A program made the position numbers and the translations under genes. A stretch of DNA of 64,000 nt. Source: Candidatus Micrarchaeia archaeon. Its GTDB lineage: Archaea; Micrarchaeota; Micrarchaeia; CABMEP01. Of this stretch, positions 3,918 through 50,705 are shown one piece after another; positions within the stretch are counted from its first letter, which is position 1; each line of letters starts with the position of its first letter. The notes under the pieces were generated by a model. The model was not told the origin of the DNA. It made no database searches and worked only from the letters and a program-made list of their open reading frames with translations. The DNA is taken from positions 160,001 to 224,000 of the forward strand of contig JAVZXS010000002.1 in the NCBI GenBank assembly GCA_038886535.1, read 5' to 3'.

Positions 3918-5036
3918 TTACTTCAAATATTCCTGCAATTCTTTTTTCATATTCTCTATGCTTAGAATAAAATCAGCGTATCCTATCCATTTTCCATCTT
4001 CAAAACTATACATGTCATTGTCACTTATAACGATCATCAATTCATTTATTCCATTTTTGAAAACAGGCAGTTTAATCTCCTTTCCTATTTCTCCCATATA
4101 TGAACCATCTTGCGGTTCAATTAATTCAGCTCCATTAAGAAGATTAATCTGAGAGCTATTGTTTATTTTATATCGAGAAAAAGCAACAACACAATGTCCC
4201 AGCGAAGGTTCTGTTAAGTAGCAAACAACATAAGGATAAACATTTCCTGGCTTAAGCTCTTTTGCTTCCACATCTCTAATGAACCAGGTGTCTCTATTGT
4301 TTATAAAATATCTATTACCATTTTCTATCGGAATGTAGGATTCAATAATTATCTTTTTATCGCTGCATTTGCTTAATATGTGGTTCATTTCTGCTTTAAA
4401 AAATAGAGAATAGTCTTCACAGTCGCCCCCTTTATTTGCGATGAATTCATCTAATGAACTTAGTTTATCTTCTCTATTATAAAGAGAGGTATCTAAAATG
4501 TATCTAAGTCCATAAAATTCATCATTAACGAGATAAAAGCAAGCAGTTTTGATCCTGCATTCATCTAAAATTATTTTATAGCATTCCGTTTTAAGATCGC
4601 TTACTAGGCTTATTTTTAGGCTATCATTCATTTTTTCAATATTTGAATTTTGAGAAAACCATCTCATGGATTCATTTATTTTTTGTGAATAATCATCCAA
4701 CTTTTCTAATAATGTATTTGCCTCATCTTTGAGTTGTTTATATCTGCTTTCTAGAAGAGTATAATTTTGAGTCAACATCTGATATTCATTTTGCAGCTTA
4801 GAGTAATTTTCTTCAGCTTCACTAAGCTTTCTTTTTAAATTTTCATTTTTTTCCAAAGCAGATTGAAGCGAATTAATAAGTTCTTTCTTTTCTAAATTTA
4901 ACTTCTCTATATTTGCATTTGCATTTTCTACATAGTTAAGATGCAGTTCTCTAAGAGAATTGTATCTATTAAACTGATATACATTCAATAAAATAAGCAA
5001 TAAAACTGCAACTGCAAGAATTTTTTCCTTTTCCAT
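3918..5036 (-). CDS. Membrane-anchored coiled-coil protein with transglutaminase-like cysteine-protease domain
   Basis: N-terminal TM, ~90-aa heptad coiled coil, GGDCEDY, GHCVVA and IEPQ motifs. Confidence 0.7.
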   Translation of the reverse strand: MEKEKILAVAVLLLILLNVYQFNRYNSLRELHLNYVENANANIEKLNLEKKELINSLQSALEKNENLKRKLSEAEENYSKLQNEYQMLTQNYTLLESRYKQLKDEANTLLEKLDDYSQKINESMRWFSQNSNIEKMNDSLKISLVSDLKTECYKIILDECRIKTACFYLVNDEFYGLRYILDTSLYNREDKLSSLDEFIANKGGDCEDYSLFFKAEMNHILSKCSDKKIIIESYIPIENGNRYFINNRDTWFIRDVEAKELKPGNVYPYVVCYLTEPSLGHCVVAFSRYKINNSSQINLLNGAELIEPQDGSYMGEIGKEIKLPVFKNGINELMIVISDNDMYSFEDGKWIGYADFILSIENMKKELQEYLK

Positions 5037-5059
5037 TTTATTCAACTTTTAATGTTTAA

Positions 5060-5132
5060 TAGCCCCGACCGGATTCGAACCGGTGTCTCGGGCTCCAAAG
5101 GCCCGCATACTTGACCGCTATACGACGGGGCT
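5060..5132 (-). tRNA. tRNA-Gln(TTG), no intron, CCA not encoded
   Basis: AGCCCCG acceptor, anticodon arm CGGGC-CT-TTG-GA-GCCCG, T loop GGTTCGAATCC. Confidence 0.97.
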
Positions 5133-37590: not shown

Positions 37591-38181
37591 ATGTCACAAC
37601 TAATCTGCAAAGAAAGTATAAAAATAGATAAAAATATCCGAATTCTTGCAGTGGATGATACCCCTAGGATTAATTCTTCTTCTTTTCTTATAGGGATAGT
37701 TTATAGGAATGGAATTGTAGAGGGAGCTGTCAGTACTAAAATAACATACGATGGGGAGGACAGTACTGAACAAATAATAAAGATGATAAAGAGATCTCGT
37801 TTTTCAAATCAGATAAAATTAATTCTCCTAAATAGCATTACAATGGGAGGGCTGAACATAATAGATATTTCTAAATTGTCTGCCTCTCTTTCAATACCTG
37901 TAATTGCAATCACTCGTCATCTGCCAAGAGTTTCTGAACTGGAAAAAGCAGTTAGTAAACTTGATATTTCTAAAGAGGAAAAAGAAAGAAAACTTAATGC
38001 AATTAAGAATGCTGGGGAACCGTTCAAAATCAAAACAAAGCCGATACTTTATGCTCAAGCAGCAGGCATAGACAGGTTTAAGGCAATAGAAGCAATCAAA
38101 AATATAGGCATAGAACCTTTGAGATTATCGCATATAATAGCTTCTGCACTTGTTTTAGGCGAATCAAAGGGAAGATTCTAA
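37591..38181 (+). CDS. DUF99 family (endonuclease dU-like)
   Basis: ILAVDD, DGEDST, GGLNIIDI, EPLRLSHIIAS, GESKGR. Confidence 0.88.
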   Translation: MSQLICKESIKIDKNIRILAVDDTPRINSSSFLIGIVYRNGIVEGAVSTKITYDGEDSTEQIIKMIKRSRFSNQIKLILLNSITMGGLNIIDISKLSASLSIPVIAITRHLPRVSELEKAVSKLDISKEEKERKLNAIKNAGEPFKIKTKPILYAQAAGIDRFKAIEAIKNIGIEPLRLSHIIASALVLGESKGRF

Positions 38182-38430
38182 TTAATTTTAATTTTGCAAT
38201 ATTGTTTCTAAAGTAATGCTACCCCGATATAAGTAGAGCGAATAAATCTTATTTTTTGGTTTGGATCTAGATCTAATATCTTTTTTATCTTATTTTCTGT
38301 CACATATTTTTATCTTCCTTTATATTGCATCTCTTTTATACTTCATACTTTATTGCATAATTTTTATTTTCAGTTATATTTATCTATTTTTTTATCTATA
38401 ATTATTTATCAGCAACTAATGGGTCATAAT

Positions 38431-38607
38431 GGGCCAGTAGCTCAGAGGTAGAGCGCTTCGTTCGCATAAACTTTCTTAGAAAGAAAGTTTAATCAAAGAA
38501 ACTCTTTTAAGAAAAGAGTTTCATTAGAAAATTATGGATTAAGCTTTCATATTAAAAGAAAGTTTCGGAAAACGAAGAGGCCGCGAGTTCGAATCTCGCC
38601 TGGTCCA
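38431..38607 (+). tRNA. tRNA-Ala(CGC) with 105-nt intron at 37/38 (intron 38467-38571)
   Basis: GGGCCAG/CTGGTCC acceptor with G3:U70, anticodon stem CTTCG/CGAAG, T arm GCGAG-TTCGAAT-CTCGC; BHB central helix TTCG/CGGA with 3-nt bulges. Confidence 0.95.
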
Positions 38608-38654
38608 TGATTAGTATGATCCATAATTAGTAAAAATCAATTAAAGAGGTTAAT

Positions 38655-39893
38655 ATGAAAAAAGCTGAAGGAAAAAAGAATATTAAAAGTAATGTCTTTT
38701 GGCTTGGGATTGTAAGCCTTCTTGCAGATGCTTCTTCAGAAATGATTGCTCCAGTTATGCCATTATTTCTTTCTACTGTTCTTGGGGCAAGCGGATTTAT
38801 GATAGGATTGATTGAAGGAATTGCAAAATCTGCTGAGAGGCTGCTCTCATTTGTTTTTGGATGGTATTCTGATAAGATTGGAAAAAGAAAACCTGTGATT
38901 GCGTTTGGTTACTTTCTTTCATCAATTATGAAGGGAGCATTCGCATTTACAACTGTCTGGACTGAATTTTTGTTTGCAAGAGTTATTGAAAGAACAGGAA
39001 AGGCAATTAGAGATGCACCAAGAGATGCATTGCTTGCTTCTTCAACTGGAGATTCACTTGAGGAGAGAAGAAAGGGATTTGCGCTGCATAGAATGTTAGA
39101 TACGCTTGGTGCAATAATAGGTCCTCTAATAGCGCTTCTTTTTGTAGCCTCTCTAACGCTGGATTTCGAAAGCACTGTAAGGAATCTTTTCATTCTATCA
39201 CTCATCCCAGGTCTTCTTGGGGTCTTAATAGTATTGATCTTTGTAAAGGATGTTGAGCTCAAAAAATCAGAAAGAACAAAAAAACCAATCTCAAAATCAT
39301 TTTCTATAGAATACGGAAATAGTTATAAGCAATTTCTGTTTTCCTTAGTTCCATTTTTCCTTTTTACTCCTCCACTTGCATTCATATATTTACAAGCTAG
39401 CGAATTCGGCCTTGTTCTATCTGGGGTTATAACACTTGGCTTTTTGTATTCCGTATTTTATATCTTAGGTGCGAATCTAATTAATTTTATATCAGATAAA
39501 TTCGAGATAAAAATAGGAAAGAAGCAGGGAATTGAAATTTCACTTTTGTTTGTAATGCTTTCATTCCTATCAGTTTTTCTTGTCCATTATTTGCAATTAG
39601 ATCAGGGGAATGCTCTTACGTTTATTGTTTTGATCTTAGCATTGGTTCTTTATGGAATAGGAATGGGAATGTTTGAAGTGGAATCTAAGTCCTATATATC
39701 TCTTCTTGTAGATAAAAAAGATATGGGCGGAGCATTTGGAGCTTACCAAACAATAAGTGGAATTATGATAATCTTTTCAGGTTTGGTATTTGGATTCATT
39801 TGGGATTTTTCACCGGGATTTGCATTCTTAATAGCAAGCATCGCTTCGCTTCTTTCATTAATTATCTTCAGACATTTTATTAATTTCAGTTAA
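38655..39893 (+). CDS. MFS transporter
   Basis: About 12 TM segments; GWYSDKIGKRK motif A; ERTGKAIRDAPRDAL. Confidence 0.92.
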   Translation: MKKAEGKKNIKSNVFWLGIVSLLADASSEMIAPVMPLFLSTVLGASGFMIGLIEGIAKSAERLLSFVFGWYSDKIGKRKPVIAFGYFLSSIMKGAFAFTTVWTEFLFARVIERTGKAIRDAPRDALLASSTGDSLEERRKGFALHRMLDTLGAIIGPLIALLFVASLTLDFESTVRNLFILSLIPGLLGVLIVLIFVKDVELKKSERTKKPISKSFSIEYGNSYKQFLFSLVPFFLFTPPLAFIYLQASEFGLVLSGVITLGFLYSVFYILGANLINFISDKFEIKIGKKQGIEISLLFVMLSFLSVFLVHYLQLDQGNALTFIVLILALVLYGIGMGMFEVESKSYISLLVDKKDMGGAFGAYQTISGIMIIFSGLVFGFIWDFSPGFAFLIASIASLLSLIIFRHFINFS

Positions 39894-50550: not shown

Positions 50551-50592
50551 GATTTATTTTTATATAGTATATTTTTAAATTTATTTAATCAG

Positions 50593-50705
50593 GGCCGCAG
50601 AGGGGAATCGAACCCCTGCTTGGAGGTTTCTGCATCTTTGATGAAACTTTCCTTTGCAGAAAGTTCCTCCACAGCCTCCCGTCCTGCCATTAGACGACCG
50701 CGGCC
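50593..50705 (-). tRNA. tRNA-His(GTG) with encoded G-1 and 41-nt intron at 37/38 (intron 50628-50668)
   Basis: G-GCCGCGG/CTGCGGC-C acceptor, GGAGG-CT-GTG-G..A-CCTCC, AGGGG-TTCGATT-CCCCT; central helix CTGT/GCAG. Confidence 0.94.

Follow-up and report, generated by a model that had tools for sequence, protein, structure and literature searches.

The introns of two tRNA genes in the window (the whole stretch of 64,000 nucleotides that we analyzed) are built from a repeat of about 30 nt, a hairpin with a tail (GAAACTYYY-loop-RRRAGTTTC-ATCAAA), and comparison with related genomes shows that intron sequence was exchanged between different tRNA genes. The explanation that we favor, with a probability of roughly 0.6, is that a non-autonomous, REP-like DNA repeat colonizes tRNA genes, is tolerated there via the epsilon2 endonuclease, and forms introns that recombine with each other by ectopic conversion. 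Within this explanation, we infer the splicing, the arrival of the repeat at the DNA level, and the recombination through the hairpin arms.

The window belongs to a draft genome of 1.14 Mb (33% GC, 40 contigs), which we call G000; G001 to G008 are the other genomes of the family, and L numbers denote loci with the repeat. The genes around the two tRNAs are archaeal and include an exosome Rrp4/Csl4-type N-terminal domain, RNA polymerase subunit L, and a class I Trp/Tyr-tRNA synthetase. G000 encodes a three-unit epsilon2 EndA of 381 amino acids (G000:C1:41089-42231), which aligns with the ARMAN-2 epsilon2 enzyme (4FZ2) over residues 11 to 381 (E = 7e-123), and a second, single-unit EndA of 173 amino acids (contig C16 of G000; L152:1474-1995). 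The epsilon2 match, together with introns of this kind in records named Candidatus Micrarchaeota, suggests that G000 is a DPANN archaeon of the Micrarchaeota type. RtcB is encoded in all five genomes examined, including G000. In G000 it is a 960-amino-acid frame (G000:C2:11176-14058) that is split by an insertion of about 500 amino acids with intein-like ends; RtcB is likewise split in G005 and G147 and is unsplit in G004 and G007. Several small contigs of G000 may represent mobile DNA or may not belong in the bin: C8 has conjugative-type genes, C10 and C11 have bacterial-looking tRNA-Pro, and C25 has an IS607-like resolvase and TnpB pair. The bin is about 0.3 Mb bigger than its congeners.

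The first tRNA gene, tRNA-Ala(CGC), lies on the forward strand at 38431..38607, with exons at 38431-38466 and 38572-38607. It scores 53.6 bits against Rfam RF00005, and G3-U70 is present. Its 105-nt intron (38467..38571), at position 37/38, comprises three hairpin units and has a strict hBHBh' junction, with an h of 5 bp, an H of 4 bp (38461-38464 with 38566-38569), and an h' of 10 bp (38468-38477 with 38556-38565). Unit 1 (38467..38496) is a 25-nt hairpin with an ATCAA tail (z = -4.1 for its fold as DNA). Unit 2 (38498..38530) is again a 25-nt hairpin with a tail. Unit 3 (38532..38566, reverse strand) is degenerate, as the initial annotation had it, and we found from the sequence and the fold that it is also inverted, with its tail on the 5' side. 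Ten base pairs between the 3' arm of unit 3 and the 5' arm of unit 1 complete the strict bulge-helix-bulge. The fold of the entire intron has z = -5.5, and when the 105 nt are removed in silico, ARAGORN reports a clean tRNA-Ala(cgc).

The second gene, tRNA-His(GTG) (about 50592..50705, reverse strand; 46.6 bits in Rfam), also has its intron at 37/38. This 41-nt intron (50628..50668, reverse strand) consists of one forward unit, its tail, and a GCAG H' strand; without it, the two exons make up a tRNA body of the normal kind, 73 nt long and including G-1. The junction, by inspection, is of the relaxed hBH type; in the single-unit His and Ser introns of G001 and G005, h and H are present and h' is 0 to 1 bp. 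Our automated calling of spliced tRNAs skipped the His gene of G000, whose GGAAC core is outside the pattern, and called its orthologue in G005. The His intron is 82% alike to the Ser(GCT) intron of G000. Without its intron option, ARAGORN overlooked both genes, and with this option, it misnamed them as Leu and Tyr; the hairpin introns explain why standard tRNA callers overlook or misname such genes. By every sequence test that we applied, both are bona fide BHB-type archaeal tRNA introns, and we predict that they are excised. Contigs from two Logan runs (with a hot-spring metagenome label) contain positions 38000-39000 in one piece with 0 differences, which argues against an assembly chimera; these runs are possibly the source of the window's DNA, so they are not biologically independent.

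The window also contains a non-coding repeat of about 73 nt at 38191-38263, 170 nt upstream of tRNA-Ala, and a second copy on contig C3 (57688-57760) is 92% identical. There are 2 to 3 copies per genome in all seven genomes of the genus and none in the two other family genomes. Because this repeat is almost unstructured (-2.4 kcal/mol), an RNA is less likely than a site that acts as DNA (of the promoter, operator, or origin type).

As the initial annotation reported, unit 1 of Ala and the His unit are identical at 26 of 31 positions (the mismatches are at positions 9, 10, 11, 14, and 23), and unit 2 of Ala differs from unit 1 by two compensatory swaps (positions 5/17 and 7/15). The pattern AACTYTY-N6-10-RARAGTT occurs three times in the window, each time in the Ala or His intron; 0.16 matches are expected, and none of 100 shuffled sequences reached three. 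The annotation had suggested this comparison and had also held that absence from other tRNA introns and from relatives would speak against its idea. We found the unit in 8 of the 18 introns of G000 that we anchored by hand, namely those of Ala(CGC), His(GTG), Arg(TCT), Ser(GCT), Gly(CCC), Ala(TGC), Ser(CGA), and Thr(CGT) (the last is in the anticodon stem), and we found it in all eight of the other family genomes. More generally, nine of these 18 introns fall into cross-isotype groups (at least 80% identity over the shorter sequence), versus a mean of 0.95 and a maximum of 4 in 60 shuffles; the Asn intron, which is one of the nine and lacks the unit, is probably there by chance. One of these genes, tRNA-Ala(TGC), lies behind the 16S gene (G000:C1:~177-355; L008) and has a second intron, of 31 nt, in its T-loop, which includes about 14 nt that nearly repeat part of the exon upstream of it.

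The exchange that we mapped involves the Ala(CGC) and Gly(CCC) introns. Judging from the alignment, unit 1 of the window's Ala intron is inherited: it is common to the Ala(CGC) introns of G001, G002, G004, G005, and G006. Beyond unit 1, the introns of G001, G005, G006, and G002 go on with other units. In the window's intron, by contrast, the final 75 nt (38497..38571), which comprise units 2 and 3, match the entire 75-nt Gly(CCC) intron of G001 (97% identity) and of G005 (95%), and are at just 0.40 to 0.69 to the Ala orthologues. Of 1391 cross-site pairs (median 0.51), none scores higher than these two matches (0.97 and 0.95); the pairs include two mis-cut rows of 55 (G005_tgc and G007_gca), neither of them among the top pairs. 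Across the nine family genomes, the block's non-palindromic 24-nt spacer is present only in the Ala intron of G000 and the Gly intron of G001, with a version in the Gly intron of G005 that has a 1-nt deletion. Because the orthologues keep unit 1 along with other units, while the block matches Gly(CCC), the state of the window's Ala gene is derived, by replacement rather than insertion. On this evidence from alignments, the block took the place of the ancestral Ala units 2 and 3, and the crossovers appear to lie inside short arm sequences that are shared at both ends. The window's intron retains an Ala-type 3' end.

Related versions of the block were found elsewhere. Downstream of the block, run X4 continues into the Gly 3' exon, and its Ala locus has the other allele; Arg(TCT) in run X3 contains a version that has 6 differences over 53 nt. 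The Arg(TCG) intron of G003 is at 0.83 to the block. The metagenome scan gave 0 matches to the swapped block. Candidate donors are an earlier Gly intron, the Arg(TCG) gene that is missing from the assembly, and DNA of a sister population that occurs alongside. Several donors are possible because the Gly intron that G000 has now is different (0.71 to 0.72 to those of G001 and G005, and 0.78 to that of G003) and because the node that joins G000, G001, G005, and G006 is unsettled in the EndA tree.

These comparisons also modify what had been proposed for the arrangement of the units. Unit 2 does begin 31 nt after unit 1, but this period is specific to G000: in six Ala(CGC) orthologues, the distance is 33, 42, 43, 43, 45, or 49 nt. 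Similarly, the idea of tandem amplification does not hold for the window's intron, where unit 2 is part of the block shared with Gly(CCC) rather than a duplicate of unit 1. Elsewhere, genuine tandem arrays are present: G006 has one, and so does the metagenome locus L346, with four exact tandem units.

Across the family, in-silico splicing confirmed 40 introns at 20 anticodon-by-position sites; this is an ARAGORN-checked set that leaves out residual-intron calls and three mis-registered duplicates, and we did not rely on an unfiltered BHB scan, which makes many chance calls. The introns start 4 to 5 nt ahead of the C of AAAC in 38 of the 40 (we tried offsets of -7 to -3). An h' of at least 4 bp was found in 25 of 28 introns of at least 60 nt and in 2 of 12 shorter ones; because h' goes with length in this way, a second, usually inverted unit turns a relaxed junction into a strict one. 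The initial annotation had the repeat spreading into position 37/38. Introns of different tRNAs are indeed filled with it, but the sites extend to the T-loop and the D-loop (of the 40 introns, the anticodon loop has 30, the T-loop 8, and the D-loop 2), and outside the family, most copies among the matches listed are not in tRNAs. As an example across positions, the D-loop intron of Val in G007 is at 0.86 to the anticodon intron of Arg(TCT).

Close relatives differ through gain, loss, and replacement of introns. The Arg(TCG) intron is filled in G002 and G003 and empty in G005, G006, and G008 (precisely empty in G005 and G006), while G007 has a short unrelated intron; we did not find the Arg(TCG) gene in the assemblies of G000, G001, or G004. 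Glu(TTC) and Glu(CTC) have an intron in G004 and none in G000. Genomes with filled and empty sites have EndA genes that are 92 to 95% identical. We also considered whether the epsilon2 EndA could itself be the cause of the spread, and we rejected this because 40 of 41 relatives have the enzyme, but the strict unit occurs in just 13 of 151 genomes of the class.

Seven of the eight strict hairpins in G000 are inside tRNA introns; the eighth has no tail. One tail-less hairpin is on contig C8, which has conjugative-element-like genes and may be foreign to the G000 organism. A genome-wide search of G000 gave no clear case of a free tailed copy. Free copies do occur in G004, G007, and G008, several of them directly behind a stop codon or the end of a tRNA. 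The strict pattern is present in all eight other family genomes and in none of 32 more distant ones, and a reversed-pattern control gave 0. A T-rich variant of it is found, patchily, in 13 of 151 genomes of the class (again with 0 for the reversed control), and 138 of the 151 lack the strict unit. Given the family's introns, the geometry of their BHB junctions, and the free copies in relatives, we agree with the initial annotation that this looks like a dispersed, mobile hairpin module that predicted splicing makes harmless. In G004, the 3' part of tRNA-Ser(CGA), with a 78-nt T-loop intron, occurs twice, 1.7 kb apart (G004:C1:3050-3420 and ~4900-5100; L183 and L019), and this doubling resembles what an integration-type duplication leaves.

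The repeat is not limited to this family. A scan of genomes found it in at least 121 stretches and a scan of metagenomes in at least 129, with both the core and the tail kept across phyla; a few of the rows in the genome scan repeat the family's introns and so are not independent. The 80 named records among the matches listed include Micrarchaeota, Aenigmatarchaeota, Woesearchaeota, Iainarchaeum, Altiarchaeota, Thermococcus, bins labeled as Methanosarcinales, and Oscillospiraceae/Eubacteriales; none of these 80 is a Thermoproteales record. Two viral contigs also matched. The matches listed correspond to 123 unique sites, of which 19 were placed in introns, 4 in tRNAs without a BHB call, 12 behind the 3' end of a tRNA, and 88 elsewhere, by an automatic placement that overlooks some multi-intron tRNAs that are recognizable by eye. 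Among the matches listed, all 12 of the tRNA-adjacent copies are on the sense strand and begin 0 to 3 nt behind the 3' end.

Some of these loci have features of their own. The two viral contigs (L231 and L232; one is 239 kb long and one has a GVMAG label) each contain an inverted pair of units, at intergenic sites that are homologous between the two. By eye, the unit lies exactly at the 3' end of the 16S rRNA at L250 and inside apparent insertions in 23S rRNA at L249, L251, and L261 and at L359. At a set of loci of Woesearchaeota type and from Oscillospiraceae (L043, L052, L070, L071, L084-L086, and L104; L036, L064, L081, and L107), the unit forms the central part of a larger composite, which has a GC-rich hairpin upstream and is often 31 nt behind the stop codon of a housekeeping gene.

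We looked for whatever might mobilize the repeat. Y1_Tnp was found in none of the nine family genomes, whose assemblies are incomplete. Y1 is present in two of five other genomes with the unit, and none of the 12 Y1 loci has the hairpin beside it. RVT_1 and GIY-YIG were each found in none of five genomes; TnpB was found in three of five, and its four loci lack a hairpin of the repeat family. The genomes in these searches are 54 to 94% complete. A Pfam scan of 78 neighbors of non-tRNA sites (from the first 80 of at least 121 loci) identified mostly housekeeping proteins and no transposase or nuclease family. Thus, the search for a cognate transposase or nuclease, which the initial annotation had proposed, turned up none beside the repeat.

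No target-site duplication was seen at the tRNA intron junctions. A copy of 14 to 28 nt of the immediate 5' flank is present downstream at 5 of 224 sites, versus 0 in the shifted-flank, permuted-pair, and mirror controls. This count is in favor of the DNA repeat proposed below, although four of these five are from one metagenome data set, outside the G000 family. The 5' foot of 247 sites is GTAG in 4, GGAG in 5, CGTC in 2, and GACG in 14, and none of these in the two window introns; at the opposite end of all 247 is the ATCA tail, which the search pattern fixed. The earlier description of the unit as REP/MITE-like therefore stands as a likeness, but we found no REP tag, no fixed target-site duplication, and no cognate transposase.

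We propose that the repeat spread in three steps. First, the repeat would be copied as DNA by an agent acting in trans, and it would enter sites that are transcribed or single-stranded, in the same orientation as the gene; the agent is most likely an enzyme that recognizes hairpin DNA and is encoded away from the repeat. Second, an insertion 0 to 2 nt behind a position where the exon supplies H and h should be removable by the broad-specificity epsilon2 EndA and RtcB. In structure, as the junctions show, a single unit gives a relaxed hBH junction, and an added inverted unit, by pairing with the first arm, gives a strict hBHBh' junction. Third, once several tRNA genes have the unit, arms that are common to both ends of an intron would act as short homologies, so that non-orthologous tRNA genes could trade intron bodies by ectopic recombination or gene conversion. 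The Ala(CGC) intron in the window, with its inherited unit 1 and its 75-nt block, would be a product of the third step. Once excised, the intron is most likely functionless; selection would act on spliceability, and palindrome repair would keep the stems perfect. Two observations count against this explanation as a whole: no mobilizer was found, and G000 has no clear free tailed copy. Also, the ends of the block coincide with the donor's splice sites, the Arg(TCG) site is precisely empty, and copies lie on the sense strand at RNA 3' ends, and these three observations fit an RNA route as well.

Such an RNA route seems to us unlikely, although it accounts for several of the observations. The excised intron, linear or circular, would be the mobile entity: EndA and RtcB would join it to free RNA 3' ends (those of 5' exons, tRNAs, and 16S rRNA), and a reverse transcriptase acting in trans, or RNA-templated repair, would bring it back into DNA. 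This would explain why the block that moved is a whole intron (75 of 75 nt), the precise empty site of Arg(TCG) in G005 and G006, the sense orientation of all 12 tRNA-adjacent copies among the matches listed and their location 0 to 3 nt from the 3' end, the copy at the 16S 3' end in L250, and the fixed register of the unit relative to the 5' splice site. However, RVT_1 was found in 0 of 5 genomes, and there are copies in Bacillota records and in viral contigs; Bacillota are not known to have EndA. The stems also lack the G-U bias of transcripts (see below), and the Ala-type 3' end of the window's intron fits a crossover within a shared arm. A related possibility, which we also consider doubtful, is an enzyme-less mini-element that lives through host splicing: a pan-archaeal hairpin that supplies h' would create new BHB introns in tRNA and rRNA, and these introns would be moved via the excised RNA. 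If this were true, it would identify where gained archaeal introns come from and how they travel.

It is quite improbable that the hairpin and tail are kept as a functional RNA module, with a factor that would bind the pre-tRNA or the excised RNA (for regulation of splicing or of termination). In favor of this idea, the core and tail are conserved across phyla, and the compensatory changes are real: in a 20-row alignment with six mis-registered rows, 14 cells had double changes, versus 7.4 ± 1.9 when shuffled (0 of 500 shuffles reached this). At stem positions 6 to 8 of 65 family units, there are 140 T-A, 48 C-G, 4 T-G, and 3 C-A pairs, counts that overstate the number of independent events since the units are related. 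Wobble pairs are no more common than C-A in either orientation (7 versus 9), and there is no transcript G-U bias (3:3 in forward units and 4:2 in inverted ones), in a strand test that is symmetric and of low power, with tRNA/other labels from a rough heuristic that is wrong for some rows. Thus, the covariation is real yet is of the Watson-Crick type only, without a G-U bias, and does not imply an RNA function. The hairpins are of odd length in 60 of 65 family units and in 86 of 129 of the scan matches listed. The pair counts and the odd lengths in the family are a signature of the DNA type, in favor of our preferred explanation. Presumably, the two arms change jointly, in the way expected from repair of a DNA palindrome; selection at the RNA level would act on the h' helix only. 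Also, neither window intron contains RUGAUGA or CUGA (C/D) boxes, no Rfam family other than tRNA was above threshold, introns are gained, lost, and replaced in close relatives, most copies among the matches listed are non-intronic, and the strict unit is absent from 138 of 151 class genomes. We therefore disagree with the initial annotation where it took covariation as a sign that the excised intron has a function: G-T is as rare as C-A, C/D boxes are lacking, and intron bodies turn over quickly among close relatives.

Finally, we think it very improbable that there is no mobile element and that AT-rich palindromes were homogenized by template switching, with introns converging because h' needs a stem and with the Ala/Gly match due to chance or mis-assembly: the unit is of low complexity, its odd-length, mismatch-free stems fit palindrome self-repair, and no mobilizer was found, but this view is largely refuted by the shared asymmetric CATCAAA tail and unique 24-nt spacer, by the reversed-pattern controls (0), by the locus being in one piece in two runs, and by the presence of the unit in distant phyla.

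Our preferred explanation, a DNA repeat that colonizes tRNA genes, can be compared to several known systems. The closest is the transposition of introns in Thermoproteales, where, according to the accessible text of these sources, similar introns occur across tRNA isotypes and positions, constrained by BHB and with a broad-specificity EndA (PMC4090602, PMC4033280, PMC3239211, bioRxiv 10.64898/2026.10.13.758758); the mechanism is given as unknown (PMC4090602). In our case, too, related introns are found at different isotypes and positions. Compared by description only, our case differs in the lineage, in the epsilon2 enzyme, and in having a defined modular repeat, which is also found free and in other phyla. 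Also, one replacement can be mapped here between sister species, and the available text on Thermoproteales describes no free donor repeat. In ARMAN-2, the epsilon2 EndA cleaves both strict and relaxed (hBH) motifs in vitro, as far as that paper's text was available (PMC3239211). The enzyme is of the same type as in G000 (PDB 4FZ2), and introns are likewise at 37/38 and in the T-loop, but the assayed introns were of 13 and 25 nt, and the accessible text mentions no repeat family (PMC3239211).

Like REP, REPIN, and BIME elements as described in the accessible parts of the literature, the unit is a palindrome of 20 to 40 bp with an unpaired tail and occurs as singletons, as inverted dimers with variable spacers, and in clusters (PMC3733652, PMC3116915, PMC6006769); also, REPs are often just behind genes, according to the text available (PMC3733652). 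Unlike the REPs of those descriptions, the unit has no GTAG/CGTC tag, is AT-rich and mainly archaeal, has no Y1/RAYT adjoining it, and in G000 is found almost only in spliceable tRNA introns. Nor does it look like a MITE, as there is no fixed-length duplication and no transposase among the 78 neighbors. The two window introns differ from the box C/D guide intron of the tRNA-Trp type in having no boxes. G000 does have an intron of this known guide type, of 135 nt with C/D-like boxes, in tRNA-Trp (G000:C1:129442-129649), and it has no relation to the hairpin unit.

In the tRNA-Thr of Caldiarchaeum, an intron was gained through an integrating mobile element, by the available account (PMC3293823). 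As in our case, that account has gain or loss between very close relatives, tied to mobile DNA and recombination; however, it concerns one locus with an integrase and att repeats, while here there are many loci and positions and no integrase-type att duplication at the introns (PMC3293823). In Asgard archaea, tRNA introns were gained repeatedly at BHB-competent sites, and the part of the preprint that was available calls the arrival of introns a central open problem (bioRxiv 10.64898/2026.10.13.758758). Cross-isotype intron families make up 1.5% there, with the donor not found, according to the same text; in G000, by a different procedure, they make up about half, and a donor repeat is visible (bioRxiv 10.64898/2026.10.13.758758). 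We found no description of the hairpin-plus-tail repeat in the literature that we covered; the supplements of PMC3239211 and of the preprint may list introns with this unit. The available texts state that the entry of introns into archaeal tRNA genes is an open question (PMC4090602; bioRxiv 10.64898/2026.10.13.758758), and here a candidate donor sequence is defined. Furthermore, the exchange between Ala and Gly can be mapped to within a few bases, and there are filled and empty sites, which makes the question of intron origin testable. What appears to be new, judging from the sequences compared, is a defined donor repeat together with a mapped exchange, as a variant of the known theme of intron transposition.
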